Assembly: GCF_001997385.1 (NCBI RefSeq)
Contig: NZ_CP019633.1
Span: forward strand, 720,001-752,000
Direction of reading: 5' to 3'
Length of the DNA: 32,000 nt
DNA from: Sedimentisphaera cyanobacteriorum
GTDB taxonomy: Bacteria; Planctomycetota; Phycisphaerae; Sedimentisphaerales; Sedimentisphaeraceae
The translations under genes and the position numbers were made by a program. A model generated the notes under the pieces. That model was given only the letters and a program-made list of their open reading frames with translations. It had not been told where the DNA came from and did not search any database. Each line of letters starts with the position of its first letter. Position 1 is the first letter of the stretch. Positions 8,012 to 31,866 of this stretch are shown here, piece after piece.

Positions 8012-8113
8012 TTTTAAGAAAGAATCAAGCAGTTTTGAATTATTCTCAGAAATCTTGCATTTCCGATTCAGGCGAGATATAATTTTCAAAAATATTATTA
8101 GGCCGGCGGATAT

Positions 8114-9780: not shown

Positions 9781-9807
9781 TTCATCGCTTTACTGAATGG
9801 ACGGCTC

Positions 9808-10422
9808 TTAAAATCTGAATATCGACAGGTAGTTATAACTGCCCGCTGCTGAGCAGGTTTCCGCTTTTATCCCAACAGCATCTTCCAGCTCTTCTGGAGT
9901 ATATCGAATATTCAGAGCAGGCCCGAAACCGGTATCCTCCTTTTTGAATTCCAGAACAGCGAGCCTGCCTGAGGGCTTGAGGATTCGTGATGTTTCCTTC
10001 TTGAAGCTGCTGATTTGTCCGTCTGTAAATCCGTGAAATACGTTCGATATATACACCAGATCAACCGATGCGTCTTCAATCGGCAACTTTTCTGTAATGC
10101 TTGCAAGGTGCACTTCTGTGTTGTCTGAATCTAAATCGCTTTTGAGATTTTCGATTGAATCCTCGTGGGTATCTACTGCATAAACCTTCCCTTCGCTACC
10201 TGTTAGTTCGGAGAATAGTTTTGTCATATATCCATTCCCGCAGCCGGCATCAAGTATGCACTGGCCGGGAGTAATATCAAGAAGTTCTAAAACTGCTTCT
10301 GTATCAACTATAAGTTCGGACGATTTTCCGCCGTGCTGGTGATTGTGATTGCTGTTCATATTTAAACCTTGTTCCTTTATGTTAATTTGTTCCGATTTTA
10401 TATGCAGGCTGAAACTTGTCAA
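9808..10422 (-). CDS. Class I SAM-dependent methyltransferase
   Basis: It has SAM-binding motif I (ILDAGCGNGY) and a Methyltransf_11-like layout. The start is ambiguous. The internal ATG at comp(10357..10359) gives MNSNHNHQHGG..., is preceded by AAGGAAC, and may be the true start. Confidence 0.75.
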   Translation of the reverse strand: MTSFSLHIKSEQINIKEQGLNMNSNHNHQHGGKSSELIVDTEAVLELLDITPGQCILDAGCGNGYMTKLFSELTGSEGKVYAVDTHEDSIENLKSDLDSDNTEVHLASITEKLPIEDASVDLVYISNVFHGFTDGQISSFKKETSRILKPSGRLAVLEFKKEDTGFGPALNIRYTPEELEDAVGIKAETCSAAGSYNYLSIFRF

Positions 10423-10588
10423 TTTGTCTGGCTTGACTATTACCTGCGATTTTATAGACTGTTTTGAGACGGTTAGAATTATCAGGGTTAGAAAAAAACG
10501 TATTTTCAGATTAAATGGTTATGATGCAAACTGAAAAGTGCGGCTAATATTCGTTTTCCTCTAAAAGGGAATCGATTTTCGAGGGGTT

Positions 10589-13531: not shown

Positions 13532-13645
13532 TTTTTAATCATTATAATAATTTCTGCTTAATTAGAAAAATTAAAAAACGGATAAAGGTTTAAAGCCTTT
13601 TTACTTTTCCTCAAGCTTAAATTGAGATACTCAAGGAGCATTAAA

Positions 13646-15832: not shown

Positions 15833-15860
15833 TTTTGGTTAGTTTTAAAGGGTTAGAATT

Positions 15861-18542
15861 ATGAGAATCAGGAAGTTTTTTTTATGTTCAGTTTTAGCTG
15901 TTTTCTGTATTCTGCTGATGCGCAGCGATTTGTTTTCAGCGGAGAAAAACAGCCGCAAAGTGCAGGATTATCTCGAGCCTGTGCCTTTTACAGAGGTGAG
16001 CTTTAACGATGAATTCTGGCTTCCCCGCTTGCAGACAAACCGCAAGGTTACCGTTCCGCATATATTCAATAAGCTTGAAGAAACCGGCCGGATAGACAAC
16101 TTTGCAATAGCAGGCGGCCTTAAAAACGGCAAGCCCCGCTATCATTTTCCGTTTGATGATACCGATATATACAAAACGCTTGAGGGAGCGAGCTATTCTC
16201 TGATGGTTTCGCCCGACCAGGAGCTTGAGAATTATCTTGATGAGCTTATAGAGCTTATCGCAGCGGCCCAGGAAGAAGACGGGTATCTTTATACCGTCCG
16301 CACCAATAGCGGTGATATATGGAGCGGAAAAGAGAGGTGGTCTTATCTCTCTATGAGCCACGAGCTTTACAACGCGGGACATCTGTTTGAAGCCGCGATT
16401 GCTCATTATCAGGCTACAGGCAAGAAATCGCTTCTGAATGTAGCAGTGAAATTTGCCGATCTTCTGGTGGAAACCTTTCATGAGAGCGGCGTTGAAATCC
16501 CGCCCGGTCATGAGATTGTTGAATCAGGCCTCGCAAGGCTTTCTGATGTTACCGGCAATAGAGACTACTTGGAACTTGCCAGATATTTCGTTGATATTCG
16601 GGGCAGGGTTACAGAAGACTACGAGCCTTGGGGCGAATACCATCAGGACCACAAACCCGTACTCCAGCAGGAAGAGGCCAAAGGCCACGTTGTAAGGGCG
16701 CTTTATCTGTACATAGGTATGGCAGATATAGCTTCTCGGATTCCGGATTCTGGCTACAGCGAAGAGCTTATGGATACGCTGGTAAAGATATGGCACAGCA
16801 TCAATGATACAAAGATGTATATTACCGGCGGGCTAGGAGCAAAGCATGGCGGAGAGTCTTTCGGCAGGCCTTACGAGCTACCGAACGACGGATACTGCGA
16901 AACCTGCGCTCAGATTGCAAATGTTATGTGGAATCAGCGTATGTTCCTTCGCTTCAAGGAAGGCAGGTATATAGATTCCCTCGAACGCAGCCTCTACAAC
17001 TCGCTAATCAGCGGAGTATCGCTGCAAGGTGATACCTTCTTCTACCCCAATCCGCTCGTCTCAAGCGGCGGCTATTCACGGAGCTCGTGGTTTGAATGCA
17101 ACTGCTGCATAGGGAATATTGCACGTACAATCCCTTCTATCCCCGGCTATGTTTATGCCCGCAGCGAGGACGGGGTATGGGTTAATCTTTTTATTCCGGG
17201 CAAGGCTGGGTTTGAGCTGTCGAACACTCAGGTTGAATTTGTTCAGAAGGGCGGTTATCCTTGGAAGGGCAATATCTCAATAGAAGTTTCACCAAAAGAT
17301 GAGGCTCGGTTTACAGTGTATCTCCGCATTCCCGGCTGGGCACGGAATAAACCTGTCCCAAGCAGCCTCTACCGCTATAAAGAAATGTTTGATAAACAGC
17401 CCGAGCTTTCTGTAAACGGAAAATCAGTCCCGCTGAAAACACAAAAAGGCTACGCTGCTATCAGCCGCAAATGGAAGTCAGGGGATAAAATTGAGCTGAA
17501 CCTGCCGATGAAGGTTAGGAAGGTTTTGCCGCATCCGAATATCAAAGCGGACAGGGGCAGAATTGCCATGGAAAGAGGGCCGATTGTTTACTGCGCTGAA
17601 TGGCCTGATTTTAACAGCAAACGTGTAACGCATTTGTATATCCCCGAAAATGCAGAGTTCAAGGCTGAATACCGCAAGGATATGCTTGGCCTTAATGGCG
17701 TTGCTGATAAAGGCTGCGTTCTTACAGGCACTGTAAAGGGTCTTTTCGAAAACGAAAAATCCTTGGCAGTATCTAAAAAAGTTGATTTTACTGCAATCCC
17801 GTATTACGCATGGGCTCACAGAGGCGAAGGTCAAATGGCGGTATGGCTGCCTGAAGAGAAAGATTTGGCAAATCCAATTCCTAAGCCTACCGTTAAAAAG
17901 ATGCTTGGCCATTGGAAGCTTGAAGAGGAATCAGGAACTGCTGCAAAAGATTCAAGCGGACAAGGCGGCACCGGCAAACTCGCTGACGGGCTTTCTTTTG
18001 ATGAAGATTCAAAAGAAACTGCTGCAGGAAGCTGTCTCCATTTCGATGGTACCGGCGACTATATCAAACTGCCCGAAGGTTTTGATGATTTTGTAAAGGG
18101 ATGCACAATCTCTGTATGGGCATATCCAACAGCAGTTAATAGATGGGCGAGGTTTGTGGATTTAGGCAGCGGCGCGGCTTCAGACAATATCTTTCTAACG
18201 CGTGAGGCGGATTCGAATAATCTGATATTCGATTCCTTTACAGGAGCAAGCTCATCAGGCCTTGTTCGGGCGGAAGATGCTGTAGAGCTCAATGAATGGC
18301 AGATGTTTACCGCTGCTGCAGGCCCTTCAGGCAATGCTAAGCTTTTCAAGAACGGCAAACTTATAGCCGATGGAAAAATAGAGGTCTCAAATATAAAGCG
18401 AACCCGCAATTTCATCGGCAAAAGCAACTGGTCTGCCGATGAAAACTTTCAGGGGCTTATGGATGATGTGCGAATTTACAATTACGGCTTGAGCGATTCG
18501 CAGGTCAAGCAGCTCTATAAAAACACAAAACCAAGCCATTGA
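15861..18542 (+). CDS. GH127 beta-L-arabinofuranosidase-like (DUF1680) fused to a C-terminal LamG domain
   Basis: 893 aa with a signal peptide (FFLCSVLAVFCILLMRSDLFSA). The N-terminus is GH127-type (FNDEFWLPRLQTNRKVTVPHIFNKLEETGRIDNF). The Zn/Cys catalytic motifs GYCETCA (E-x-C) and FECNCCIGN (C-C) are present. The LamG module lies at about 17904..18522 (CLHFDGTGDYIKLP...CTISVWAYP...WARFVDLG...MDDVRIYNYGLS). Confidence 0.88.
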   Translation: MRIRKFFLCSVLAVFCILLMRSDLFSAEKNSRKVQDYLEPVPFTEVSFNDEFWLPRLQTNRKVTVPHIFNKLEETGRIDNFAIAGGLKNGKPRYHFPFDDTDIYKTLEGASYSLMVSPDQELENYLDELIELIAAAQEEDGYLYTVRTNSGDIWSGKERWSYLSMSHELYNAGHLFEAAIAHYQATGKKSLLNVAVKFADLLVETFHESGVEIPPGHEIVESGLARLSDVTGNRDYLELARYFVDIRGRVTEDYEPWGEYHQDHKPVLQQEEAKGHVVRALYLYIGMADIASRIPDSGYSEELMDTLVKIWHSINDTKMYITGGLGAKHGGESFGRPYELPNDGYCETCAQIANVMWNQRMFLRFKEGRYIDSLERSLYNSLISGVSLQGDTFFYPNPLVSSGGYSRSSWFECNCCIGNIARTIPSIPGYVYARSEDGVWVNLFIPGKAGFELSNTQVEFVQKGGYPWKGNISIEVSPKDEARFTVYLRIPGWARNKPVPSSLYRYKEMFDKQPELSVNGKSVPLKTQKGYAAISRKWKSGDKIELNLPMKVRKVLPHPNIKADRGRIAMERGPIVYCAEWPDFNSKRVTHLYIPENAEFKAEYRKDMLGLNGVADKGCVLTGTVKGLFENEKSLAVSKKVDFTAIPYYAWAHRGEGQMAVWLPEEKDLANPIPKPTVKKMLGHWKLEEESGTAAKDSSGQGGTGKLADGLSFDEDSKETAAGSCLHFDGTGDYIKLPEGFDDFVKGCTISVWAYPTAVNRWARFVDLGSGAASDNIFLTREADSNNLIFDSFTGASSSGLVRAEDAVELNEWQMFTAAAGPSGNAKLFKNGKLIADGKIEVSNIKRTRNFIGKSNWSADENFQGLMDDVRIYNYGLSDSQVKQLYKNTKPSH

Positions 18543-18638: not shown

Positions 18639-20024
18639 CTATTCCTCAGCGGGCTTTTCAGCTGGATCTTCCTGCTTCATTCCCAAAACGCTGCTGTTCC
18701 ATTGCTCAACTGTTTTTTCTACAGCCTCCGCTTTTAACTGCCCCGTTTTAACAGGCAGCCAGAGCGATACCTTCGGGACGTAGGTAATTACCATCAGCGA
18801 GACAACCATTGCCCCGAAGAACGGGAGCATATAACGTGTAACTTTGGCGATAGTAGTCTTTCCTGCACCGCATCCGATAAACAGGCAAGTCCCCACCGGC
18901 GGCGTACACAGTCCGATGCAGAGGTTGGCAATGAGCATAATCCCGAAGTGGATCTCGTGCATACCCATAGTTTTTACTACAGGCAGGAATATCGGCGTAA
19001 AGATAAGCACTGCCGGGGTCATATCCATAAAAGTGCCCACAAAAAGAAGCAGCAGATTGATTGTAAAGAGGATTACAACAGGGTTGTCAGAGAGGCTTAT
19101 AAGCCCGCTGCTTACAGACTGCGGTATGTTGGCCATTGTCATTATCCAGCTCATCCCCGAGCTTGCTCCTATAAGAAGCATTACCACAGCAGTTGTTATT
19201 CCAGTTCGCTTGAGTATTTCGGGAAGCTCTTTCATCTTTATCTCCCGATACACCCAAACCGAGAGGATAAATGCATAAAGCACCGCTACCGCAGCAGCCT
19301 CTGTGGCTGTGAATATTCCTTTCAGAATCCCGCCTATTACTATTATTACAAGCAGAAGGCTCAGAATTGCCCGTTTGAACGACAGCAGTGCCTCAATAAA
19401 CGAAACCCTGTCTGCAGAGCTGTATTTGTATCTGAAGGCAAAATAGCCGCATACGAACATTATAAAAAGTCCTGTGATTATCCCCGGAATTATCCCTGCC
19501 ATAAACATCGCAGCAATGGATACGCTCCCCGCTGCAACGGAATAAACAATCATTACATTGCTCGGAGGGATAAGAAGTCCTGTAGTTGCAGCGGTTGTGG
19601 TTACGGCTACGTTGAATTCGCGGTTGTAGCCTTTCTTGTTCATTTCCGGAATCATAAAACCGCCTACTGATGAAACCGCAGCTGCTGCAGAGCCCGAAAT
19701 AGATCCGAACAGCATGCAAGTAAGCGTGTTTACGTATGCAAGTCCGCCGGGAAACATACCCACTAATGAATTGGCAAAGTCGATAAGTCTTCGTGCCATA
19801 CCGCCTCTACCCATTAGCTGGCCGGAAAAAATAAAAAACGGAATCGCAAGCAAAGCGAAGCTGTTTACCCCTTCGGCCATCTTCGCCGCCACCATAACTG
19901 TGGGGTCGCTTCCCTGAGCAGCGATCGCCATAAAGGCTGCTATAGCAATTGAAACCGCTATAGGAACGTTGATTATCAGCAGGAGTACAAATCCAAGTAC
20001 AAGAATCAGTGTGATTGAACCCAT
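18639..20024 (-). CDS. dctM: TRAP transporter large permease subunit
   Basis: 461 aa polytopic membrane protein with DctM-like sequence (SFALLAIPFFIFSGQLMGRGGMARRLIDFA, LFGSISGSAAA). AGGAGGA lies upstream of the start. The ATG overlaps the dctQ stop codon (TAATG). Confidence 0.9.
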   Translation of the reverse strand: MGSITLILVLGFVLLLIINVPIAVSIAIAAFMAIAAQGSDPTVMVAAKMAEGVNSFALLAIPFFIFSGQLMGRGGMARRLIDFANSLVGMFPGGLAYVNTLTCMLFGSISGSAAAAVSSVGGFMIPEMNKKGYNREFNVAVTTTAATTGLLIPPSNVMIVYSVAAGSVSIAAMFMAGIIPGIITGLFIMFVCGYFAFRYKYSSADRVSFIEALLSFKRAILSLLLVIIVIGGILKGIFTATEAAAVAVLYAFILSVWVYREIKMKELPEILKRTGITTAVVMLLIGASSGMSWIMTMANIPQSVSSGLISLSDNPVVILFTINLLLLFVGTFMDMTPAVLIFTPIFLPVVKTMGMHEIHFGIMLIANLCIGLCTPPVGTCLFIGCGAGKTTIAKVTRYMLPFFGAMVVSLMVITYVPKVSLWLPVKTGQLKAEAVEKTVEQWNSSVLGMKQEDPAEKPAEE

Positions 20025-20538
20025 TAGTTGTCCTCCTTTTGCTGGTCTTTTTCAAGAATTGTTTCTGCAAGCTGCTCGGCTGTAAACAAAATTATAAACG
20101 CACCGGCAATCGGCAGAGCAAAATATACATGCCCCATCGTTACGCCTAAAGCGGGCGTAAGGGCAGCGGTTGTCTGGTCCATATTCGCAGAGGCCACCTG
20201 AACCCCGCCGATTATGAAAACAGCAATAGCGAAAAACAGCACTGTCAGCTGCGTAAAAACCTTTACAAGCTTCCTGGCCTCGGGAGCGAGTTTGCCCACA
20301 AAATAATCAACTCCCAAATGGGCATTTTCCCCAAATGCCAGCGCACCGCCCAGAAGTGCAACCCATACCAAAAGGAAGCGTGCCAGCTCTTCGGTCCATT
20401 TGGCCTGCCCCCAAGAACGAAGCGTGTGAACACGCCCCACAATACATCGAGAACGAGCACCGCCATTGCAATTATCAGTCCGTATTCAAGCATTCGGCAG
20501 AGCCAGAATCTTGCTTTTTTAAGAAGCTCTATATTCAT
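20024..20538 (-). pseudogene. dctQ: TRAP transporter small permease subunit, split by a 1-nt frameshift in a homopolymer
   Basis: Two overlapping ORFs in different frames together make one DctQ. ORF 20263..20538 gives the N-terminus (...LDVLWGVFTRFVLGG) and 20024..20440 gives the rest (QAKWTEELARFLLVWVALLGGALAF...). The frames meet at the C5 run at 20408..20412. One extra C/G there gives a continuous 171-aa protein reading ...FTRFVLGGQAKWTEELARF... Confidence 0.8.
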
Positions 20539-21545
20539 GGTTTAATCTCTCGAATCTTCTTTACAAGCTTGATGATTTCTTCATTCTCAATCGCTTCATA
20601 CATAGGCTGCACCTTTTCTGCGAAGAGGCTCTGATCTACTTCATGTATTGTTACGCCGTTTTCTTCAGCAAATTCAAGCGATCTTTTTGTTTCTTCTTTC
20701 CAAAGCTCTCTCTGATATTCTCTGGATTCTTTCGCAGCTTTCATCAGCCAGCTTTGAAGCCTGCTGTCCAAACTGCGCCATATCTTTGTGCTCATAAGAA
20801 GCACATCAGGTATGCGGGTGTGAGCATCTTTGGAGAAATGCTTGCACACTTCGTAATGCTTGTTTGTCGTGAAGCTGGGCGGGTTGTTTTCAGCCCCGTC
20901 CACTGTTCCCTGAGCAAGAGCTGTATAGAGCTCGCCCCAGGCGATTGGTGTGGGGGATGCCCCCAGCGAGCTTACCATCTTCATTGCCATCTCGCTGTTC
21001 ATTACTCTTATTTTCAGGTTTTTCAGGTCCTCCGGAGTTTTTACAGGCTTGTCCTTAGTGTAAAAATTTCTGCTCCCCGAATCGTAGTAGCAAAGCCCTT
21101 GAACACCTTTATCATTGCCTTTTTTAAGCAGTTCGCCCCCAAGCTCGCTTTTTAGTACTGTCCAGAAATGCTCTTCAGAACGGAATAGATATGGAAGGCC
21201 GAAAACCTTCAGCTCAGGTACAAAATTTTCCAGAGATGCTGCTGAAGTCTTGGTCATTGCAAGGTCGCCGCTGCGAAGCTGCGCTATACACTCCACCTCC
21301 GAGCCCAGTACACTGCTTGGATAGATGTCGATTGTGGCCGTCCCGCCGGAGAGCTCCTCCAAACGCTCCTTCATAAAGACCATGCCCTTATGAACGGGGT
21401 GGTTTGTGTCAAGGCAGTGGCCGAGTTTAAGAACGGTTTTCTCAGACCTGCCTTCCATAGAACGGACAAACAATGAGAATATGCCCGTTGCTATAATAAG
21501 GCCTATTATTAAACCGCTTACAAAAAATGAAGATTCTTTTTTCAC
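20535..21545 (-). CDS. dctP: TRAP transporter substrate-binding subunit (DctP family), probable hexuronate/sugar-acid binding
   Basis: 336 aa with an N-terminal membrane anchor or signal followed by a DctP-like fold (LKLGHCLDTNHPVHKGMVFMKERLEELSGG...IDIYPSSVLG). The start is GTG. Its stop overlaps the dctQ start (ATGA). Substrate is inferred from context only. Confidence 0.85.
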   Translation of the reverse strand: MKKESSFFVSGLIIGLIIATGIFSLFVRSMEGRSEKTVLKLGHCLDTNHPVHKGMVFMKERLEELSGGTATIDIYPSSVLGSEVECIAQLRSGDLAMTKTSAASLENFVPELKVFGLPYLFRSEEHFWTVLKSELGGELLKKGNDKGVQGLCYYDSGSRNFYTKDKPVKTPEDLKNLKIRVMNSEMAMKMVSSLGASPTPIAWGELYTALAQGTVDGAENNPPSFTTNKHYEVCKHFSKDAHTRIPDVLLMSTKIWRSLDSRLQSWLMKAAKESREYQRELWKEETKRSLEFAEENGVTIHEVDQSLFAEKVQPMYEAIENEEIIKLVKKIREIKP

Positions 21546-22814: not shown

Positions 22815-22842
22815 TTGAAATTGAAAATTTTTCAGTTATAAT
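22815..22842 (+). promoter_or_regulatory. Near-consensus sigma70-type promoter for the SDR/LarA-like/kinase/gnd/uxaC operon
   Basis: TTGAAA (22815..22820), a 16-nt spacer, then TATAAT (22837..22842), 45 nt upstream of the ATG at 22888. Confidence 0.5.
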
Positions 22843-22843
22843 A

Positions 22844-22862
22844 AAACTCAAAGCTTGAGTTT
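22844..22862. promoter_or_regulatory. Candidate operator: 8-3-8 inverted repeat overlapping the predicted transcription start
   Basis: AAACTCAA (22844..22851), spacer AGC, TTGAGTTT (22855..22862). The arms are perfect and begin right after the -10 box, in the divergent region next to the ROK regulator gene. Confidence 0.45.
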
Positions 22863-22887: not shown

Positions 22888-23706
22888 ATGAATAATTTAT
22901 TTGACCTAACAGAAAAAAAATACGTTATAACCGGCGGAGCAGGCGTTTTAGGAAGCAGAATGGCCAAAGATCTCGCTGCTGCCGGAGCGAAAGTGTGCAT
23001 TGCTGATAACGATCAGGACAATGCCGAAAAGGTTGCAGGCGAAATAAATGAGCAGGGCAGTTTTGCTGTCTCAGTGAAGTGTAATGTGCTGAAAAAGGAT
23101 GAAGTCCGCCAGACACTTGAAAAATCTGAAGAGCTCATGGGCGGGGTTGACGGTCTTATAAACGCCGCAGGAGGGAACAGAAAAGATGCTACTGCCTCAG
23201 GAGATTTGAAGTTTTTTGATATTCCTGAGGATGCTATGCATTTCGTATTTAACTTGAATTTCTTTGGAACATTTCTACCTTCTCAGGTTTTCGGAGAGTA
23301 TTTCGCTGATAAAAAGCAGGGCAGCATACTAAATGTATCAAGTATGGCAGCTCTAACACCCCTGACCAACATTTGCGGCTATGCCGCAGCAAAGGCCGCA
23401 GTAAGCAATTTCACTCAATGGCTTTCAGTGCATATGGCAAAAAATTATTCTCCGCAGATAAGGGTGAACGCTATTGCCCCGGGCTTTTTCCTCACTGAAC
23501 AGAACCGCTTTCTTCTCACTGATGAAAAAACAGGCGAACTCACTGACAGGGGCTCCACGATTATAGAACATACACCTATGGGCGAATTCGGAAAGCCTGA
23601 AGACCTAAGCGGCACCGTTTTCTGGCTCTTAAGCGATGCTTCAAGATTTGTAACAGGAACCGTAATCCCTATCGACGGGGGCTTCAGTGCTTTCAGCGGT
23701 GTTTGA
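22888..23706 (+). CDS. uxuB: SDR-family oxidoreductase, UxuB/YjmF-type fructuronate reductase (D-mannonate oxidoreductase)-like
   Basis: 272 aa with the motifs TGGAGVLG, NAAGGN, the catalytic Y-x3-K (YAAAKAA) and IRVNAIAPGFFLTEQNRFLL. I recognise these as the SDR-type mannonate oxidoreductase subgroup. Substrate assignment also rests on context. Confidence 0.7.
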   Translation: MNNLFDLTEKKYVITGGAGVLGSRMAKDLAAAGAKVCIADNDQDNAEKVAGEINEQGSFAVSVKCNVLKKDEVRQTLEKSEELMGGVDGLINAAGGNRKDATASGDLKFFDIPEDAMHFVFNLNFFGTFLPSQVFGEYFADKKQGSILNVSSMAALTPLTNICGYAAAKAAVSNFTQWLSVHMAKNYSPQIRVNAIAPGFFLTEQNRFLLTDEKTGELTDRGSTIIEHTPMGEFGKPEDLSGTVFWLLSDASRFVTGTVIPIDGGFSAFSGV

Positions 23707-23750
23707 TAACGGCAGGGCAGCAGTTTACCCATTTTAGAGGCAATTTAATT

Positions 23751-25001
23751 ATGCTTTACAGCAGCACAGGCAGTGAAAACACCAACCTATCCGGCGAGGA
23801 TCTGCGAACGGTTTTGTATGAGGCTCTGGACAAGCTTTCTGGCCGCAAAAGGGTTCTGGTGATACCGCCGGACAATACGAGATTCTATTCCCGTGCAGGC
23901 GAGCTTACCCGCTTTGCGTGGGAGTATTATGGGGATAAGCTAACTGATATTCTCCCCGCCCTTGGAACTCATAACCCTATGACAGCAGCTGAAATCAAGC
24001 GGATGTTCGGGGATGTGCCAAAGGAGCTTTTCCGCGTTCACAACTGGAGGGAGGATATAACAGCCCTCGGCCACGTACCTTCAAGCTATATCAGCGATGT
24101 CAGCGGGGGCAGGCTCAATTTCGACTGGCCTGCGCAGGTGAATAAACTGCTTGTAGAAGGCGGTTTTGACCTGATTCTTTCGATCGGCCAGGTGGTACCG
24201 CATGAAGTTATCGGTATGGCAAACTACAACAAGAACATATTTGTCGGGACGGGCGGGGCAGAAGGTATAAACAAAAGCCATTATCTGGGTGCAGTTTACG
24301 GGATGGAGCGGATAATGGGCAAAGCGGAGAATCCCGTTAGAAGCGTTCTGAATTACGCAAGCGAGAATTTTGCGAAAAGCCTTCCTGTTGTTTACGCCCA
24401 TACAGTGATCGAGGCTGGTGAAAACGGTAATACAGCTCGAGGACTTTTTGTAGGCGATGATGAGCAGTGTTTCCATAAAGCAGCGGAGCTGGCTGAGAAA
24501 GTGAACGTAACCAAAGTAGAAAAGCCGCTGAAGAAGGCAGTTGTCCTGCTTGAGGCAGACGAATACAAAAGCACATGGCTTGGAAACAAGGCTATATACA
24601 GAACCCGTATGGCAATGGCGGACGGGGGCGAACTGATAATTCTTGCCCCGAGCGTTAAGGAATTTGGCGAGGATAAACAGATCGACAAACTGATTCGCAA
24701 ATACGGCTACACCGGAACGCCGAATGTGCTTGAACAGACAGAGAAAAACAGCGACTTGAGCGATAATCTAAGCGCTGCCGCCCACCTGATACACGGCTCC
24801 TCAGAAGGGCGGTTCAATATCACTTACTGCCCGGGCGGCTTAACAAGAGAGGAGATTGAATCGGTGAATTTCAGATACGCCAGTTTGGATGAGATAATGA
24901 GAAAATACAGCCCTGAAATGTTGAAGGACGGATTTAATAACATTGAAGGCGAAGAAGTTTACTTCATTTCAAATCCAGGGCTCGGGCTCTGGAAGAGTTA
25001 A
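23751..25001 (+). CDS. LarA-family (lactate racemase domain, nickel-pincer nucleotide dependent) 2-hydroxyacid racemase/epimerase; candidate D-mannonate/D-gluconate 2-epimerase
   Basis: I prefer the ATG at 23751 (416 aa) over the TTG at 23703. LarA-like motifs are VLVIPPDNTRF (cf. SDHTRP), ALGTHNP, and VVPHEVIGMANYNKNIFVGTGGAEGINKSH. The spacing H151-x9-K161-x15-H177 equals what I recall for L. plantarum LarA His174/Lys184/His200. The function is inferred. Confidence 0.7.
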   Translation: MLYSSTGSENTNLSGEDLRTVLYEALDKLSGRKRVLVIPPDNTRFYSRAGELTRFAWEYYGDKLTDILPALGTHNPMTAAEIKRMFGDVPKELFRVHNWREDITALGHVPSSYISDVSGGRLNFDWPAQVNKLLVEGGFDLILSIGQVVPHEVIGMANYNKNIFVGTGGAEGINKSHYLGAVYGMERIMGKAENPVRSVLNYASENFAKSLPVVYAHTVIEAGENGNTARGLFVGDDEQCFHKAAELAEKVNVTKVEKPLKKAVVLLEADEYKSTWLGNKAIYRTRMAMADGGELIILAPSVKEFGEDKQIDKLIRKYGYTGTPNVLEQTEKNSDLSDNLSAAAHLIHGSSEGRFNITYCPGGLTREEIESVNFRYASLDEIMRKYSPEMLKDGFNNIEGEEVYFISNPGLGLWKS

Positions 25002-25031
25002 GGCAAATATTTAATAAAGATTGGGGAAAAT

Positions 25032-26099
25032 ATGAACGATATGAAAAAATATTCTATCCTTGTTCCAACTAGTATGGGACTCCGGCTGACCCCCGAGAAT
25101 TCTCAGCCCTTCCACTGCACCGAAACCTTCAAAATGCAGGCAACCAGCGCTGAAACAAACGTAGCAAGCGTTTCCTCATATCTGGGTATGCCCGTGAAGG
25201 TTTTAACCGCCTTTGTAAAAGGCAGTCCTGTATCCCGCTTCATTAAGGACAACCTCCAAGGCCGCGGGATGGACTATGAAGGAGCAGAATTCGAACAGGG
25301 CGGGCCATGGGGCTTTCGTCATCAGATAAATATGGCCGGCAGCGGCTGGGGCTCACGCGGGCCGCGCGTGCACAACGACAGAGCAGGCGAAGTTGGAAGA
25401 GAGCTGAGCTCGGAATATTTCGATTTCGAAAAAATCTTTGCAGAAGAGGGAGCCCGCATAGTTCACCTGTCCGGTTTAGTGGCGGCATTGTCAGAGAAAT
25501 CCAGCCAGTTCTGCCTTGATGTGGTTCGATCTGCCAAGAAAAATGGCTCGCTTATCTCATTCGATCTTAACTACAGGGCAAGCTTTTGGAAAGGCCGTGA
25601 GAAAGAGCTCGGCGAGGCTTTCGCTGAGATTGCTTCAAACAGCGATATACTTATCGGAAATGAAGAAGATTTTCAGCTCTGCCTTGGGATTGAAGGCCCT
25701 GAATCAGGCGGAAAAGGCCTGGAAGAAAAAATCGATAACTTCAAAGAAATGATTGGAAGAATACAGAAGGCCTATCCGAATGCGAAATGGTTTGGAAACA
25801 CGCTCCGTGAGGTGGTTTCGGCAAACACGCATAAATGGGGAGCGATTCTTACAGACAGCAGCGACTGGGAGATAATAAGCCCCAGAGAGATAGGCGTGTT
25901 AGACCGTATCGGAGGCGGCGACGGCTTCGTTGGCGGCCTGCTTTACGGCATACTTAAAGGCTGGGATGCAGCAAACTGTGCCCGTTTCGGATGGGCAGGC
26001 GGAGCCCTCGCTGCCACTATGCTAACAGACTACGCCCAGCCAGCAGATGAAGACCAGCTATGGAGCATCTGGGAAGGCAATGCGAGAGTAAAAAGATAA
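25032..26099 (+). CDS. PfkB-family sugar-acid kinase, KdgK-like (2-keto-3-deoxygluconate kinase-like; specificity uncertain)
   Basis: 355 aa. The N-terminus matches the KdgK pattern (MGLRLTPENSQPF...SAETNVA). It also has DLNYRASFWK, LIGNEEDF and the PfkB anion-hole motif DRIGGGDGFVGGLLYG. Confidence 0.75.
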   Translation: MNDMKKYSILVPTSMGLRLTPENSQPFHCTETFKMQATSAETNVASVSSYLGMPVKVLTAFVKGSPVSRFIKDNLQGRGMDYEGAEFEQGGPWGFRHQINMAGSGWGSRGPRVHNDRAGEVGRELSSEYFDFEKIFAEEGARIVHLSGLVAALSEKSSQFCLDVVRSAKKNGSLISFDLNYRASFWKGREKELGEAFAEIASNSDILIGNEEDFQLCLGIEGPESGGKGLEEKIDNFKEMIGRIQKAYPNAKWFGNTLREVVSANTHKWGAILTDSSDWEIISPREIGVLDRIGGGDGFVGGLLYGILKGWDAANCARFGWAGGALAATMLTDYAQPADEDQLWSIWEGNARVKR

Positions 26100-26126
26100 T
26101 AGAATTTAACATTAGGAGATAATAAT

Positions 26127-27578
26127 ATGGCAAAAGCAGATATAGCAGTAGTAGGCTTGGCGGTGATGGGTGAAAACCTCATCCTGAATATGGAAAGCAA
26201 AGGCTTCACCGTTGCCTGCTATAACCGCACGGTTTCCAAGGTTGATAATTTTATGAACGGCAGGGCAAAGGGCAAAAATATTATAGGCTGCCGGAGTATA
26301 GAAGAGCTGCTCAGCTCGCTCAAATCACCGAGAAAAATTATGCTTATGGTAAAGGCGGGAAAACCTGTCGATGCTTTTATTGAGCAGGTTCTACCCCATC
26401 TTGACGACGGAGATATTGTAATAGACGGGGGCAACAGCCATTTCCCCGATACAATCCGCAGAACTGAATATGTGGAAGGCAAGGGCAAGCTCTATATCGG
26501 AACAGGCGTTTCGGGTGGCGAGGAAGGGGCTCTTTTAGGCCCCTCTATAATGCCGGGGGGAAGCCCAGCTGCCTGGGAGCACGTAAAGCCCATATTCCAG
26601 AAAATCTCAGCCCACACAGAAAAGGACGAGCCCTGCTGCGAATGGGTTGGCGAAAACGGAGCAGGCCATTTCGTTAAGATGGTTCACAACGGCATCGAAT
26701 ACGGCGATATGCAGATGATCTGCGAAACATATCAGCTTATGAAATACGGCCTCGGTATGAGTAATGAGCAGATGAAGGACGTTTTCACCGATTGGAATGA
26801 AGGCGAGCTGGATTCTTATCTCATAGAGATTACCCGCGATATACTCGGCTGCAAGGATGAAAGCGGGCAGTATGTTCTCGATTTAATCCTCGATACTGCC
26901 GGCCAGAAAGGTACAGGCAAATGGACAGCGATAGCTTCTCTGGATGTAGGTCAGCCGCTTACGCTCATTGGAGAGGCTGTTTTCGCGCGCTGCCTTTCAG
27001 CACTCAAAGATGAACGGAAAAAAGCTTCTGAGGTGCTTTCCGGGCCTGATGCTGAGTTTGAAGGCGACAAGGCTAAAATGATTGACGATCTCCGCAAGGC
27101 GCTCTATGCCTCGAAGATCGTAAGCTATGCTCAGGGCTATCAGCTTATGCGTGCAGCTGCAGCAGAATATGGATGGAATCTCAATTATGGCGGAATAGCA
27201 CTTATGTGGCGGGGAGGATGCATTATACGTTCGGTATTCCTCGGAAAGATTAAAGAAGCCTTCGACAAGAATCCAGAGCTTACCAACCTCCTTCTCTATC
27301 CGTTCTTTGCAGAAGCGGTACAAAACAGTCAGGATGCTTGGAGACGTGTGGTAACAACTGCCGTTAAGCAGGGGATTCCTGTGCCGGCTATCAGCAGCGC
27401 GCTTGCATTCTACGACGGCTATCGAAGCGAGCGTCTGCCTGCAAATATGCTTCAGGCACAGAGGGATTATTTCGGAGCTCACACCTACGAGAGGATCGAC
27501 AAACCTCGCGGCGAATTCTTCCATACCAACTGGACAGGACGCGGAGGAGAAACCGCTTCTTCAAGCTATATTGTTTAG
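26127..27578 (+). CDS. gnd: 6-phosphogluconate dehydrogenase, decarboxylating
   Basis: 483 aa with the motifs GLAVMGENLILN, IDGGNSHF, GTGVSGGEEGA, GAGHFVKMVHNGIEYGDMQ and RDYFGAHTYER. AGGAG lies upstream of the start. Confidence 0.95.
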   Translation: MAKADIAVVGLAVMGENLILNMESKGFTVACYNRTVSKVDNFMNGRAKGKNIIGCRSIEELLSSLKSPRKIMLMVKAGKPVDAFIEQVLPHLDDGDIVIDGGNSHFPDTIRRTEYVEGKGKLYIGTGVSGGEEGALLGPSIMPGGSPAAWEHVKPIFQKISAHTEKDEPCCEWVGENGAGHFVKMVHNGIEYGDMQMICETYQLMKYGLGMSNEQMKDVFTDWNEGELDSYLIEITRDILGCKDESGQYVLDLILDTAGQKGTGKWTAIASLDVGQPLTLIGEAVFARCLSALKDERKKASEVLSGPDAEFEGDKAKMIDDLRKALYASKIVSYAQGYQLMRAAAAEYGWNLNYGGIALMWRGGCIIRSVFLGKIKEAFDKNPELTNLLLYPFFAEAVQNSQDAWRRVVTTAVKQGIPVPAISSALAFYDGYRSERLPANMLQAQRDYFGAHTYERIDKPRGEFFHTNWTGRGGETASSSYIV

Positions 27579-27605
27579 TGAACTAATCTCCGAAAGGAAA
27601 GCAGT

Positions 27606-29015
27606 ATGGATAACTTTATAACAGATAATTTCCTCCTGAAAAGCGGGTCAGCCCAAAGGCTTTACCACGAATTTGCAAAGGATATGCCGATATTTGATTA
27701 TCACTGTCATCTGCCCCCTAAACAGGTGGCAGAGGATGCTATGTTTGAAAATATCACTCAGGCGTGGCTCGCGGGCGACCACTACAAATGGCGTGCTATG
27801 CGTACTAACGGAGTGGATGAAAAATTTGCAACCGGCAGCGCTTCAGACCGCGAAAAATTCCGCAAATGGGCTGAAACTATCCCCTATGCCCTGAAAAGTC
27901 CGCTCCACCATTGGACTCATCTGGAGCTGAAGCGTTATTTTGGTATAGATGAGCTTCTCAGTCCCGCCTCCGCAGACAGGATATACGATAAAGCAAGCGA
28001 AATGCTTAGATCAAGTCAGTACAGCACCCGAAATCTGATGCGAATGATGAGTGTGAAGGCAGTTTGCACCACAGACGACCCCGTTGACAGCCTCGAATAT
28101 CACAAAAAGATTGCTGAAGACGGATTTGAAATCAAAGTTCTCCCAACGTGGCGGCCGGACAAAGCCATGGCTGCGGAGGATACTGATAAGCTCAATCAGT
28201 GGATTGAGAAGCTCAGCGAGGCAGCAGATATAGAGATTAGTGATTTTCACGCCTATCTGGAAGCCCTCAAAAAACGCCACAGCTTTTTCCACCAAAACGG
28301 CTGCCGCATATCAGACCACGGCCTTGAAACTGTTTTTGCTGAGGATTACACCGAATCGGAAATCAAAGCGATTTTTGAAAAAATTCGCTCAAACAAAGAA
28401 CTTGACCGCGATGAAGTGAACAAATTCAAATCTGCAATGCTGACTGAGCTTGCTGCTATGAATCACTCCCGAGGCTGGGCGCAGCAGCTTCATCTCGGTG
28501 CAATAAGAAACAACAATTCGAAGATGTTTAAGTCTCTAGGCCCGGATACGGGATTTGATTCGATTCTCGATGCCGAACTTGCTAGGCCCTTATCTAAATT
28601 TTTAGACAGATTAAACACCAATGACAGCCTCGCAAAAACCATTATCTACAACCTGAACCCCAGAGATAATGAGCTTATAGGCTCTATGATAGGCAATTTT
28701 CAGGATGGAAGCATCCCGGGCAAGATGCAGTTCGGCACGGCCTGGTGGTTTTTGGACAACAAATCAGGCATGGAAAGGCAAATTGAAGCTCTCTCCAGCC
28801 TCGGATTGCTGAGCAGATTCATTGGTATGCTCACTGATTCCCGAAGCTTCCTTTCCTATCCGCGGCACGAGTATTTCAGGAGGATTCTCTGCAATATTCT
28901 CGGCAATGATATCGAAAACGGAATTGTCCCGAATCACCTGAATTCTCTGGGCAGAATGGTTCAGGATATATGCTTTAACAACGCAGAAAATTACTTTCAG
29001 ATAGACCTTGATTGA
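27606..29015 (+). CDS. uxaC: Glucuronate isomerase (uronate isomerase)
   Basis: 469 aa with the motifs FITDNFLL, MPIFDYHCHL, GDHYKWRAMR, WTHLELKRYFGI, YNLNPRDNE, FGTAWWFLD and LTDSRSFLSY. Confidence 0.95.
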   Translation: MDNFITDNFLLKSGSAQRLYHEFAKDMPIFDYHCHLPPKQVAEDAMFENITQAWLAGDHYKWRAMRTNGVDEKFATGSASDREKFRKWAETIPYALKSPLHHWTHLELKRYFGIDELLSPASADRIYDKASEMLRSSQYSTRNLMRMMSVKAVCTTDDPVDSLEYHKKIAEDGFEIKVLPTWRPDKAMAAEDTDKLNQWIEKLSEAADIEISDFHAYLEALKKRHSFFHQNGCRISDHGLETVFAEDYTESEIKAIFEKIRSNKELDRDEVNKFKSAMLTELAAMNHSRGWAQQLHLGAIRNNNSKMFKSLGPDTGFDSILDAELARPLSKFLDRLNTNDSLAKTIIYNLNPRDNELIGSMIGNFQDGSIPGKMQFGTAWWFLDNKSGMERQIEALSSLGLLSRFIGMLTDSRSFLSYPRHEYFRRILCNILGNDIENGIVPNHLNSLGRMVQDICFNNAENYFQIDLD

Positions 29016-29049: not shown

Positions 29050-29077
29050 AGGCGAAGTTTATACTTCGCCTTTTTTC
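29050..29077 (+). terminator. Rho-independent terminator of the uxaC operon
   Basis: Stem AGGCGAAGT (29050..29058), loop TTAT, stem ACTTCGCCT (29063..29071), with a T-run at 29071..29076. Confidence 0.85.
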
Positions 29078-29140: not shown

Positions 29141-30649
29141 CACAGCCATCCCATAAGTCCATAAATTTATCGTTGAGGGCTTGTTTATTGTATTAAAACG
29201 CCCTTTTCTTGAAGGATTTGAATTACCCCAGTTTGCATTTTTTTTGCTTTTGTTCAATTGGCAGTTTTTTGCTCAATACTGCCCGCTCTCTTTTCACCTC
29301 TTTATTTTCGTAAAATCTTGCTACATATTAAAACCCGGCAAATAAGCCTGCTGAGGGCTGCCAACCATACGCGGTGAACCACGTGCTGTCCCACAGGCAG
29401 CCATAACGCTAAAAACATCCAGCCGGCTGAATAATAACCCCTCAGTAAAGTAAACAATCGGCTGAATGCTCCTTTCCACTGACCGAGGAAACCTATATAC
29501 CTTATTAAAATATAAGCCAGCATAGCCGTCCATACTTGCCATAGAATTGCTTTTTGGCTATGCCCTAGGAAATCGCTTAGCTGCAAAGTCTGTTTTATCT
29601 GCTTGAAAAACACCTCTATACCCCAGCGGCACTTATATAGGTCGCAAATACTGCTCGGCGCCCACTGCATATTGTTCGTGATAAATTTCATAAGCTTTTT
29701 CTCGCCGTTAATTTCCACATAAGCCTTAACTAAACGGAGCTTCTTCGGGTATGCCTCGCGGCTTTTCGGCATTTCAAGTTCAATTAAAGCATCGTATTGG
29801 ATATTACCTTTTGGTTCTGTATTCTGTTTAACAAAACGATATTTCATATTATCTTTGGCTCTGGTAACCCAGAATAATTCTCGCCTGTCAAGATCTGCTA
29901 GATGCTTAAAATCCACGTAAGCCTTGTCAAAAACCGCTATTTCGCCGCTTTTAAGGTCCTGACAGAGCTGATAAGCTTCTGTCGAATCATGGGTTGAGGC
30001 TTCTTTTACAATAGCAAATTGAGGCAGGAACGTCTGGAGATTCAGCTGCATATGGCACTTTGCAGCCGCTTTTCGTCTGCGATGTTTAGCCCAGTCAATA
30101 CAGTTGGCTACAAGCTGGATCGTGGTTGAGTCAACCGCATATATTGCTCTCTTAAAACGCCTCGGAAGGCCGGAATACTTATGGCCTCTCCCAAAATCAA
30201 GATGTTTGTTCTGGATATGGGACAGCACCTCCCAGAAGAGAGTCTCTGCCATAAGAGGATCTCGAACCCTGTTTGCATGAGAAAGCCCATTCCTGCTTGG
30301 AGGGGTTGCACGGCGGATAGGAGTCAAAGCTCCAGAATGATTACGCAATGTGTCGGAAACGTCGTTGAGCGAGAGACTGTGAGCAATCTGGACATGAAGC
30401 ATAGATACAATGTGCGACCAGCAAGAAAATGTTCGTGATTGCTTGTCAATACCGAAAGACCGAGACAATTTTGAAACAAGATGTGCAGGAATATGTTGGC
30501 ATATTTGCTTAAGAATGCTATATTGATGTTTGGCGGGTGTCATGGGTTACTCCTAATTTGTTTAATTAGACTGAAAGAATTAGTGTAACTCATACCCCGC
30601 TGATTTTAAAGAAACATCTTGTATTTTGCTCTTCTATGGAATGGCTGTG
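29141..30649 (-). mobile_element. IS4-family insertion sequence (1509 bp)
   Basis: The terminal inverted repeats are CACAGCCATCCCATA (29141..29155) and the reverse complement of 30635..30649, CACAGCCATTCCATA, matching at 14 of 15 positions. They are flanked by direct 9-bp repeats of GAATGATTT. The element encodes a single DDE transposase. Confidence 0.85.
29302..30543 (-). CDS. IS4-family DDE transposase (C-terminal tail probably frameshifted)
   Basis: 413 aa as called. The N-terminus is typical of IS4-group transposases (ILKQICQHIPAHLVSKLSRSFGIDKQSRTFSCWSHIVSMLHVQ), and the DDE region includes AVDSTTIQL, VFDKAYVDF and YKCRWGIEVFFKQIKQ. The last ~45 aa (YYSAGWMFLALWLPVG...) look out of frame. 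The overlapping frame (ORF 29321..29542) reads LLFSRLDVFSVMAACGTARGSPRMVGSPQQAYLPGFNM. Confidence 0.85.
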   Translation of the reverse strand: MTPAKHQYSILKQICQHIPAHLVSKLSRSFGIDKQSRTFSCWSHIVSMLHVQIAHSLSLNDVSDTLRNHSGALTPIRRATPPSRNGLSHANRVRDPLMAETLFWEVLSHIQNKHLDFGRGHKYSGLPRRFKRAIYAVDSTTIQLVANCIDWAKHRRRKAAAKCHMQLNLQTFLPQFAIVKEASTHDSTEAYQLCQDLKSGEIAVFDKAYVDFKHLADLDRRELFWVTRAKDNMKYRFVKQNTEPKGNIQYDALIELEMPKSREAYPKKLRLVKAYVEINGEKKLMKFITNNMQWAPSSICDLYKCRWGIEVFFKQIKQTLQLSDFLGHSQKAILWQVWTAMLAYILIRYIGFLGQWKGAFSRLFTLLRGYYSAGWMFLALWLPVGQHVVHRVWLAALSRLICRVLICSKILRK

Positions 30650-30672: not shown

Positions 30673-31866
30673 ATGATTAGGTATATTTTAGCATTTTCAG
30701 CAGCAGTGCTTTTTCTTGCGCCGAAAGCTAAGCCTCAGGACCTTGGTGCGAATTTCAATGAGAATCTGGGCAGGCCTCTGGAATTTACAGAGCAGATTGA
30801 AAATGAAAATATCAGATATGTCCGTGCTTTCATAGATTTTATGGACTATTTTCTTATCCTTGATGAAGAAAGGAAGATAAGCGGAGTTGATTTAGATGCA
30901 ATCCGAAACCACAACCCTTCTGAGAGGTTTGCTGCGGTAAAGGATAAGTCCGAAGGCAGGCTTGAGCTGATCTCGAGCTTTAAGATTCGCTTTGACATTT
31001 GCAAAGGTGATGTCCCGTTGCTTCATTCAGAGCAGCTGGAGTATGTGTTCACTGCTGCGGAGGAATTCCTCAAATCCTATAATCTTGGAGAAAAAATCAG
31101 CATATTGGTAATGGGTAATGAGCCTATGTTTGCATCGGGCAGGGATTCAAAGGACTATGCTCGCTTTATCAGCGAACTGGCAGACAGAATAGCAGGCTGG
31201 AAAAAGAAATACGGCTGGGATTTTCTCGTTTTTGCCGGCTCGCTCAATAAAGTATCCTTCAGCAAACACCCGACAATCCCTGAAGTGATCAAGGTGGCAA
31301 AGAGGAACAAAAACATAGACGGACTTGATATTCATATACATGCCAGAAAAAGAAAGCATCTGAGGGAAGATTTCAGGTTTATACGAAAAAAAATAGGATT
31401 TAGAAAAAAGCTTATATGCACTGAATTTTCGGTTGTTTGGGTTTTTCAGGGACATTTAGGCGAGCCGCTCGGTGAGTGGGGCGAGAAAAACGGCTTCAAT
31501 CCGGAAATGAAGCTTTGCGAATGGCTTACACTGCTTTCACGCAGGGCGGAAAACGGAAACCCTATATCTGCGGAGCTGTTCGAAGAGTATTTCGAAAGCC
31601 GGAGCTGGTATCCCGCTAACTGGTACAAGACCTTCTATGATGCCTGCAAAGATTATGATGTTTATGCAGCCTCAGGCCGGACATTCTGTGATATGGGGGT
31701 ACGCAAATACAGAGAGGACAGCAAGATGTGGTGCCTGGGATCGGTATTCAGCGGCAAATTTATGGGGAAAAATGAAGACGGCAACCAGAACCCGAGCCCT
31801 CTATTGTACCCGGAATTCAAGGCAGCAACCGAGCATTCCTTAAATGAAAGACTTAAACATAAATAG
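30673..31866 (+). CDS. Secreted hypothetical protein with clan GH-A (TIM-barrel glycoside hydrolase)-like catalytic motifs
   Basis: 397 aa with a signal peptide (ILAFSAAVLFLAPKA). LVMGNEP (Glu150 at 31120..31122) resembles the acid/base motif, and LICTEFS (Glu251) resembles the nucleophile motif about 100 residues later, with DIHIH between them. I do not recognise a specific family. The RBS is AAAGGTGA. Confidence 0.45.
   Translation: MIRYILAFSAAVLFLAPKAKPQDLGANFNENLGRPLEFTEQIENENIRYVRAFIDFMDYFLILDEERKISGVDLDAIRNHNPSERFAAVKDKSEGRLELISSFKIRFDICKGDVPLLHSEQLEYVFTAAEEFLKSYNLGEKISILVMGNEPMFASGRDSKDYARFISELADRIAGWKKKYGWDFLVFAGSLNKVSFSKHPTIPEVIKVAKRNKNIDGLDIHIHARKRKHLREDFRFIRKKIGFRKKLICTEFSVVWVFQGHLGEPLGEWGEKNGFNPEMKLCEWLTLLSRRAENGNPISAELFEEYFESRSWYPANWYKTFYDACKDYDVYAASGRTFCDMGVRKYREDSKMWCLGSVFSGKFMGKNEDGNQNPSPLLYPEFKAATEHSLNERLKHK

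Follow-up and report, generated by a model that had tools for sequence, protein, structure and literature searches.

An operon of Sedimentisphaera cyanobacteriorum predicted to carry glucuronate into the pentose phosphate pathway through a LarA-type hexonate epimerase

Organisation of the locus

Within a stretch of 32,000 nucleotides from Sedimentisphaera cyanobacteriorum (Planctomycetota, Phycisphaerae; contig NZ_CP019633.1, positions 720,001 to 752,000), referred to in its entirety as the window, five co-oriented genes separated by gaps of 27-44 nt are arranged as an operon (Table 1). They encode a short-chain dehydrogenase/reductase (SDR), a homologue of LarA, a kinase of the PfkB family, the decarboxylating 6-phosphogluconate dehydrogenase Gnd and the glucuronate isomerase UxaC. 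With a probability of roughly 0.7, these genes together provide a full alternative to the lower branch of the hexuronate isomerase pathway, with an epimerase acting before the kinase. A previous sequence-only reading of the window had given the same positions for the five open reading frames (ORFs) and the same gene assignments; all of these are borne out by ORF calls and by Pfam and NCBIfam scans, with four of the five proteins scoring above curated cutoffs.

The promoter and terminator proposed in that reading do score highest among such sites in the region, although the total number of these sites is no higher than in shuffled sequence; the promoter-like site is also kept in S. salicampi. 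In this sister species the order of genes from the GH43 gene through to uxaC is the same, with 80.8% nucleotide identity across 15.4 kb. The divergent ROK regulator and tripartite ATP-independent periplasmic (TRAP) transporter are likewise recovered by family scans. Searching the 32 kb of the window by tblastn, using representatives from related loci, found no homologue of UxuA, Eda, UxaE or KduI, in agreement with the earlier statement that the first two are absent from the locus. Neither larC nor larE is found in the window, and an Rfam scan of the same sequence identified no RNA element.

Table 1. Positions of the operon, its associated signals and neighbouring genes within the window.
Feature	Position	Strand	Basis
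SDR gene	22888-23706	+	NCBIfam PRK08277, D-mannonate oxidoreductase
LarA homologue gene	ORF 23703-25001, likely start 23751	+	NCBIfam NF052594
PfkB-family kinase gene	25032-26099	+	Pfam PfkB match
Gnd gene, decarboxylating 6-phosphogluconate dehydrogenase, NADP type (predicted)	26127-27578	+	TIGR00873
UxaC gene, glucuronate (uronate) isomerase	27606-29015	+	Pfam and NCBIfam
Sigma-70-like promoter TTGAAA-16-TATAAT	22815-22842	+	11/12 positions matched; consensus match only
Inverted repeat AAACTCAA-AGC-TTGAGTTT	22844-22862		Directly after -10 box; candidate ROK operator
Intrinsic-terminator-like hairpin and T tail	29050-29077 (hairpin 29050-29071)	+	9-bp stem, 5 GC pairs
ROK-family regulator, N-terminal winged helix	21564-22787	-	ROK and MarR_2/HTH_24 domains
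TRAP transporter dctP	20535-21545	-	Pfam and NCBIfam
TRAP transporter dctQ	20024-20538	-	Pfam and NCBIfam
TRAP transporter dctM	18639-20024	-	Pfam and NCBIfam
LarB, first enzyme of nickel-pincer nucleotide cofactor synthesis	8114-8890	+	NF033503

Conservation of the gene set

The context of the operon was studied by scanning one genome per species, which yielded more than 575 stretches encoding relatives; the counts given here cover the best 80 loci, denoted by L numbers, at which the neighbouring ORFs were clustered and annotated. These derive from the Planctomycetota, Bacteroidota, Ignavibacteriota, Acidobacteriota, Calditrichota and Spirochaetota, and epimerase identity across them is 64-71%. 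The comparison of gene order suggested by the sequence-only reading reveals an orthologous SDR at 61 of the 80 loci, Gnd at 54 and UxaC at 25, while a PfkB kinase of any subfamily is encoded at 42. A LacI regulator is present at 29 loci, UxaE-like genes at 27, KduI at 14, Eda at 13 and UxuA at seven; ROK regulators are seen in planctomycetes only (five loci), and at two loci (L032 and L037) a transketolase gene directly follows gnd. Chance is excluded as the origin of the gene set, which is found again beside the LarA homologue among these loci from several phyla.

Two further genes are found repeatedly in this neighbourhood. At 22 loci in the Bacteroidota and Ignavibacteriota, a PdxB-like D-2-hydroxyacid dehydrogenase is encoded between the epimerase and gnd (for example L079, at 7897-9039, L011, L012, L030 and L037); its score of 431.6 bits falls short of the PdxB cutoff of 434, and the substrate of its family is a 2-hydroxy acid in phosphorylated form. 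A 297-aa protein with a weak match to haloacid dehalogenase (HAD) hydrolases is encoded directly 5' of the epimerase at no fewer than 13 loci (such as L031, at 8928-9821, and also L004, L034, L041, L095, L121 and L152), often alongside a PfkA-family gene resembling pyrophosphate (PPi)-dependent phosphofructokinases. This last gene, found at nine related loci, was considered as a substitute hexonate kinase and rejected, since it scores as an ordinary member of the PPi-phosphofructokinase subfamily.

The predicted epimerase

The LarA homologue matches the family NF052594 ('NPN_18_hexonate', nickel-dependent putative hexonate epimerase) with 654 bits against a cutoff of 500, and Pfam PF09861 (Lar_N) with 41 bits against a cutoff of 23. 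Its likely start codon is an ATG with a GAGG motif upstream, at which the 100% identical public protein L21SP3_00566 (416 aa, annotated as a hypothetical protein) also begins. Matches to solved structures include 4NAR (GntE2, TM0442 of Thermotoga maritima; E = 3e-39) and 2YJG (9e-7). When aligned to GntE2, D41/R44 fall on D38/R41, H151-E152-V153 on H154-E155-S156, K161 on K164, H177 on H180, K280 on the catalytic Lys and A344-H345 on the helix-14 positions; these correspond to the catalytic, nickel-pincer nucleotide (NPN)-binding and GntE-specificity residues described by Desguin 2020 (PMC7583248) and a 2024 follow-up (PMC11770544). The catalytic Asp, two His and Lys of LarA itself (D72, H108, H174 and K298) are represented by D41, H74, H151 and K280, and its NPN-binding Arg, Lys and His (R75, K184 and H200) by R44, K161 and H177. 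The GntE signature is present as H151-E152-V153, W276...N279-K280 in helix 11 and A344-H345 in helix 14. In an alignment of 78 family members, each of the catalytic, NPN-binding and signature residues is kept in at least 75, most being strictly invariant; D41, R44, H74, H151, E152, V153, K161, H177, K280 and H345 are each kept in 77 or more, and of these all except D41 never vary.

A 20-residue signature places the protein more precisely, as it agrees at every position with the one given for 'Group 18 / G2E3' by Desguin 2020, the survey of LarA homologues that the sequence-only reading had correctly described as including gluconate 2-epimerases (PMC7583248). Identity to members of group 18 is 65% (Melioribacter), 63% (Acidobacterium capsulatum), 55% (Rhodopirellula) and 51% (a diatom); to groups 19 and 20 it is 31%, the value for the assayed GntE2 of group 20 being about 31%. 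The protein is hence predicted to be a member of LarA homologue (LarAH) group 18 and a GntE-type, nickel-pincer-dependent D-mannonate/D-gluconate 2-epimerase.

In 2020 group 18 carried the label 'putative hexonate epimerase' and was at that time without an assay (PMC7583248). A LarA homologue of Phytophthora nicotianae, LarAH15, was since reported to be a narrow-spectrum D-mannonate/D-gluconate 2-epimerase with a KM of 9.4 mM and a kcat of 111/s (PMC11770544). The primer used to clone LarAH15 encodes MATLLFAEG, and the LarA domain of the group-18 Phytophthora infestans protein PITG_09435 starts with MTLLFAEGS; on account of this match, a eukaryotic member of group 18 has very probably been assayed already, a placement that depends on nine primer-encoded residues rather than a full alignment. 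The literature found spells out no pathway role for group 18.

Synthesis of the NPN cofactor begins with LarB, and the larB gene noted in the earlier reading is confirmed by a score of 281 bits against a cutoff of 175. Its proximity to the operon was nevertheless rejected as a functional link, as larB is near the group-18 homologue (LarAH18) at none of the 80 related loci. The larB gene overlaps that for an NAD(P)H-hydrate dehydratase by 4 nt (window 8114-9780, plus strand), pairing a cofactor enzyme that uses nicotinic acid adenine dinucleotide with a repair enzyme for nicotinamide nucleotides.

The reductase, Gnd and cofactor balance

The SDR scores 359 bits against the cutoff of 281 for PRK08277, D-mannonate oxidoreductase, and has 4wuv as its best match among solved structures (1e-64). 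Secondary matches to gluconate 5-dehydrogenase models (E about 1e-53) are below all of their cutoffs. At L009, L047 and L074 the orthologous gene lies directly 5' of uxuA, in the order SDR-UxuA-kinase-epimerase; this adjacency points to mannonate both as the product of the SDR and as a branch point. We infer that the SDR performs the UxuB function, as a fructuronate reductase or D-mannonate oxidoreductase.

Gnd matches TIGR00873 with 771 bits, and UxaC scores 702 bits with Pfam and 658 bits with NCBIfam models. Strand beta-2 of the SDR ends in an Asp residue (CIADND), the classical marker of NAD(H) use, and the enzyme is probably NADH-dependent. Gnd carries YNRT, a motif typical of NADP-dependent 6-phosphogluconate dehydrogenases, and by such general motif rules appears to be of the NADP type. 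The sequence-only reading had described the route as redox-balanced. This applies to electrons alone, since the NADH-type Asp of the SDR and the NADP-type YNRT of Gnd indicate that the two steps probably draw on different cofactor pools.

The PfkB-family kinase

While the kinase matches a Pfam family, it exceeds the cutoff of no NCBIfam model. Its best match among these is the kinase half of a fusion of 2-keto-3-deoxy-6-phosphogluconate (KDPG) aldolase and kinase, at 165 bits, and against the equivalog models for KdgK, the 2-keto-3-deoxygluconate (KDG) kinase, it reaches 35-96 bits where the cutoffs are 400-440. The nearest solved relative is the KdgK of T. maritima, TM0067 (2afb; E = 1.8e-33). 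Two kinases are encoded at each of L017, L029, L030 and L061, and on the metagenome contigs L091 and L092. In every one of these cases the TM0067-like KdgK adjoins Eda, and the kinase of the type found in the window adjoins the epimerase and Gnd.

An alignment of 50 kinases separates these subfamilies by motifs in the substrate region: YGGGEANV and KVVYDRA in the KdgK type, ATSAE[TS]NV and RV[HQ]NDRAGE in the window type, and VSGGE[FY]NV and VVFYNR in a third type from Ignavibacteria. In a reverse test, for which metagenome contigs L081-L160 were used, gnd lies next to the kinase in 29 of the 32 contigs that encode one of 74% identity or higher. From the co-occurrence of KdgK with Eda, the differences in motifs and the adjacency to gnd, we conclude that the kinase is a PfkB sugar-acid kinase distinct from KdgK, functionally tied to Gnd and without a characterised counterpart; its predicted activity is that of a gluconate (or mannonate) 6-kinase.

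Transport and regulation

The regulator and dctPQM are transcribed divergently from the operon. Among solved structures, the five best matches to DctP have E values of 1e-57 to 1e-70 and include 4x8r, bound to glucuronate, 4n8y, bound to galacturonate, and the further hexuronate-binding solute-binding proteins 4n91 and 4mhf; the TRAP system is therefore predicted to take up hexuronates. As read, dctQ is split over two frames by a 1-nt deletion in a run of G near position 20407 (CTTGG-GGGCAGG in the window vs CTTGGCGGGCAGG in S. salicampi, where the 171-aa gene is intact). This is either a real frameshift disabling the small subunit of the transporter or a homopolymer sequencing error.

Two bases past the -10 box lies an inverted repeat of 8 bp, largely kept in S. 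salicampi (L161, about 9094-9112), which is a candidate operator for the ROK protein. Similar CTCA...TG.G motifs are also found past -10-like boxes in the ROK-SDR intergenic regions of the planctomycete loci L002, L003 and L016, and the divergent ROK arrangement is shared by planctomycete loci L001-L003, L016, L034 and L161.

The proposed route and its alternatives

Given the gene identities, the conserved catalytic residues and the gene linkage set out above, we infer the substrates of the enzymes, the order of the fourth and fifth steps, the cofactor preferences and the regulation as follows. Glucuronate would be taken up, probably via the adjacent TRAP system, and isomerised to fructuronate by UxaC. 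The SDR would then reduce fructuronate to D-mannonate, probably with NADH, and the group-18 LarA homologue, an NPN enzyme of the GntE type, would invert C2 to give D-gluconate. Phosphorylation at C6 by the PfkB kinase would yield 6-phosphogluconate, from which NADP-dependent Gnd would produce ribulose-5-phosphate and CO2. The inverted repeat just 3' of the -10 box is probably where the ROK protein acts to repress the operon. This is the sequence of intermediates put forward in the sequence-only reading, and both the conserved context and the literature support it.

Several observations weigh against this route. It is known at this locus, and in this species, from genes alone, and the dctQ gene of the linked transporter is frameshifted as read. 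The kinase falls outside the specificity groups characterised so far; many copies about 70% identical to it stand alone, without an SDR, gnd or epimerase gene out to a distance of 6 kb, and the neighbouring ORFs of these copies are not conserved and mostly lack a Pfam match. None of the three kinase types beside LarAH18 is a canonical gluconokinase. The KM of GntE-type enzymes for free mannonate is high, at 9-120 mM (PMC7583248, PMC11770544), and in extracts of Lactobacillus suebicus mannonate is phosphorylated first, the 6-phosphomannonate then being epimerised (PMC6978723).

The last of these points suggests the best-surviving alternative, in which the middle steps are reversed: the PfkB protein would be a mannonate kinase, and the group-18 LarA homologue a 6-phosphomannonate 2-epimerase that supplies 6-phosphogluconate to Gnd. 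Besides the precedent in L. suebicus (PMC6978723) and the high KM for the free acid, this order would suit the kinases themselves, which belong beside LarAH18 to two unusual PfkB subfamilies and are never canonical GntK, as well as the positioning of LarAH18 in other phyla next to the HAD-like hydrolase and the PdxB-like dehydrogenase, given the phosphorylated substrate of the latter's family. However, LarAH15 of group 18 and GntE2 of group 20 turn over free mannonate at 111-197/s with narrow specificity, and phosphorylated substrates appear in no published assay of a LarA homologue that was found. The acidobacterial loci, where LarAH18 is accompanied by a UxaC-like gene, a major facilitator superfamily (MFS) transporter and an SDR only, with no kinase or Gnd nearby, also fit a substrate that is not phosphorylated. 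Reversal of the two steps is consequently regarded as unlikely. Similarly doubtful is the broader proposal that a nickel-pincer enzyme acts on a phosphorylated sugar acid within a kinase-epimerase-Gnd module that is widespread, and has spread horizontally, among anaerobes that degrade polysaccharides in six phyla or more.

Far less probable than either is that the kinase is an ordinary KDG kinase, with the operon feeding the Ashwell route through uxuA and eda genes located elsewhere and the LarA homologue and Gnd forming an unrelated gluconate side-path. The nearest solved structure and the best NCBIfam matches are of KDG kinases or similar proteins, and the absence of UxuA and Eda applies to the 32-kb window only. 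Yet the score is under every KdgK cutoff, a separate TM0067-type KdgK accompanies Eda in the same clusters, the substrate-region motifs differ from those of the TM0067 type and the closest relatives almost always adjoin gnd. Identification of the kinase as KdgK was rejected on the basis of these co-occurring paralogues and motifs. Fructuronate, or 5-keto-D-mannonate, is a 2-hydroxy acid as well, and inversion at its C2 gives 5-ketogluconate. That the epimerase acts at this earlier point, with the SDR serving as a gluconate 5-dehydrogenase to form gluconate, would accord with the secondary matches of the SDR, but it is highly improbable and was rejected, because the SDR passes the D-mannonate oxidoreductase cutoff alone and fails all those for gluconate 5-dehydrogenase, its orthologues directly precede uxuA, whose substrate is mannonate, and the assayed relatives of the epimerase act on mannonate.

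Flanking genes

A run of polysaccharide-degrading genes lies upstream of the transporter (window 7052-18542, plus strand). It encodes a GH43 protein, an alginate-lyase-like protein of 980 aa that bears a LamG domain, a double GH43 protein and a GH127 beta-L-arabinofuranosidase with LamG; the GH43 and GH127 genes are kept in S. salicampi. The products of this run may release a uronate-containing substrate. At the other boundary, directly 3' of uxaC, transposase genes are present in both species: one of the DDE_Tnp_1/DUF4372 type in the window (29302-30543, minus strand) and one of the Transposase_mut type in S. salicampi (L161, 15436-16674, minus strand). The difference in family points to separate insertion events at this one operon boundary in the two Sedimentisphaera species.

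Further from the operon, a shikimate kinase domain (residues 1-160) and a complete chorismate synthase (residues 188-519) are joined in a single 531-aa ORF (window 3600-5195, minus strand). Another ORF, of 397 aa (window 30673-31866, plus strand), encodes a protein whose N-terminus resembles a signal peptide; it has no Pfam match and no relative at the 80 related loci.

Implications

If the proposed route is correct, hexuronate carbon would enter metabolism as pentose phosphates and CO2, not as pyruvate and glyceraldehyde 3-phosphate (GAP). Overall, reducing equivalents would be neither gained nor lost, while NADH would apparently be converted into NADPH. This would alter the fermentation balances predicted for abundant anaerobic polysaccharide degraders, among them Sedimentisphaerales, Marinilabiliales, Ignavibacteria and Acidobacteria. 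An annotation pipeline restricted to UxuA, KdgK and Eda would miss the capacity of such genomes for glucuronate use. The five genes of the locus make a clean set and include those for two enzymes yet to be characterised, a group-18 nickel-pincer epimerase from a bacterium and a PfkB hexonate kinase. The kinase would be either a gluconate kinase of a third type, not homologous to the others, or the first mannonate kinase to be identified. A redox-neutral route of this kind has been flagged as attractive for engineering the conversion of pectin (Valk 2020, PMC6978723).

Comparison with known systems

A literature search for this route found no paper on it in planctomycetes, and one survey of Phycisphaerae without mention of uronates; a search for 6-phosphomannonate or mannonate kinases found no follow-up beyond Valk 2020. 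The upper half of the Ashwell pathway (UxaC-UxuB-UxuA-KdgK-KdgA/Eda) is common to the operon, with UxaC followed by reduction of fructuronate to mannonate, although this reduction is carried out in the Ashwell pathway by a long-chain UxuB of the Escherichia coli type, and by an SDR in the window. Thereafter the two diverge: UxuA and Eda are absent from the window, the kinase is of a type other than KdgK and carbon would exit as ribulose-5-phosphate and CO2 rather than pyruvate and GAP. In other phyla, branches of the Ashwell type and of the window type share one cluster.

The galacturonate pathway of L. suebicus likewise converts mannonate to 6-phosphogluconate, which Gnd then decarboxylates, such that hexuronate becomes ribulose-5-phosphate without net redox change. 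There the order of steps was measured, with the kinase acting first and the epimerase on the 6-phosphate, and the genes were not identified (Valk 2020, PMC6978723); the order proposed for the window is a prediction.

The closest parallel is the GntE route of Thermotoga. Conversion of mannonate to gluconate by a LarA homologue, followed by GntK and Gnd and entry into the pentose phosphate pathway, was proposed for T. maritima by Rodionova in 2012, according to the accounts of it in PMC6978723, PMC3750489 and PMC7583248. The operon concerned was found to be induced on pectin (Rodionov 2013, PMC3750489), and the activity of GntE2 (TM0442) was measured in 2020 (Desguin 2020, PMC7583248). This operon, gnd-uxaR-uxaE-uxaD-gntE-gntK, follows the same logic as that of the window, an SDR producing mannonate, an NPN epimerase gluconate, and a kinase and Gnd completing the route, and the catalytic and NPN-binding residues are common to both epimerases. 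The components differ in several respects. The Thermotoga epimerase belongs to group 20, about 31% identical to that of group 18 in the window; its kinase is of the FGGY family (COG1070, in 86% of group-20 contexts), whereas that of the window is a PfkB protein, and group 18 lists COG0524. The Thermotoga SDR (TM0441, 1vl8; 2e-34 to the window protein) is from another subfamily. The window operon contains uxaC and no uxaE, the latter being present in Thermotoga, where it encodes a tagaturonate-fructuronate epimerase by which galacturonate joins the route, and regulation would be by a ROK protein instead of one of the GntR type, with uptake by a TRAP system.

Group 18 itself provides the nearest relatives of the epimerase, since the window protein shares the signature, passes the NF052594 cutoff and is 51-65% identical to listed members; activity is known for the eukaryotic LarAH15, a probable member, while the bacterial members are known as sequences. 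Among relatives more widely, interconversion of D-mannonate and D-gluconate has been measured for GntE1, GntE2 and LarAH15. In Table S1 of Desguin 2020, the contexts of 25 group-18 genes feature COG1028 (36%), COG0362 (32%), COG0524 (16%) and COG1904 (12%) (PMC7583248), so that the association of this group with an SDR, Gnd, a ribokinase-family kinase and UxaC is for the most part already visible there. The operon is accordingly a modest variant of the GntE route, distinguished by a group-18 epimerase, a PfkB kinase and the inclusion of uxaC, rather than a new kind of system, and what is novel in it lies in the kinase and the order of the two middle steps.

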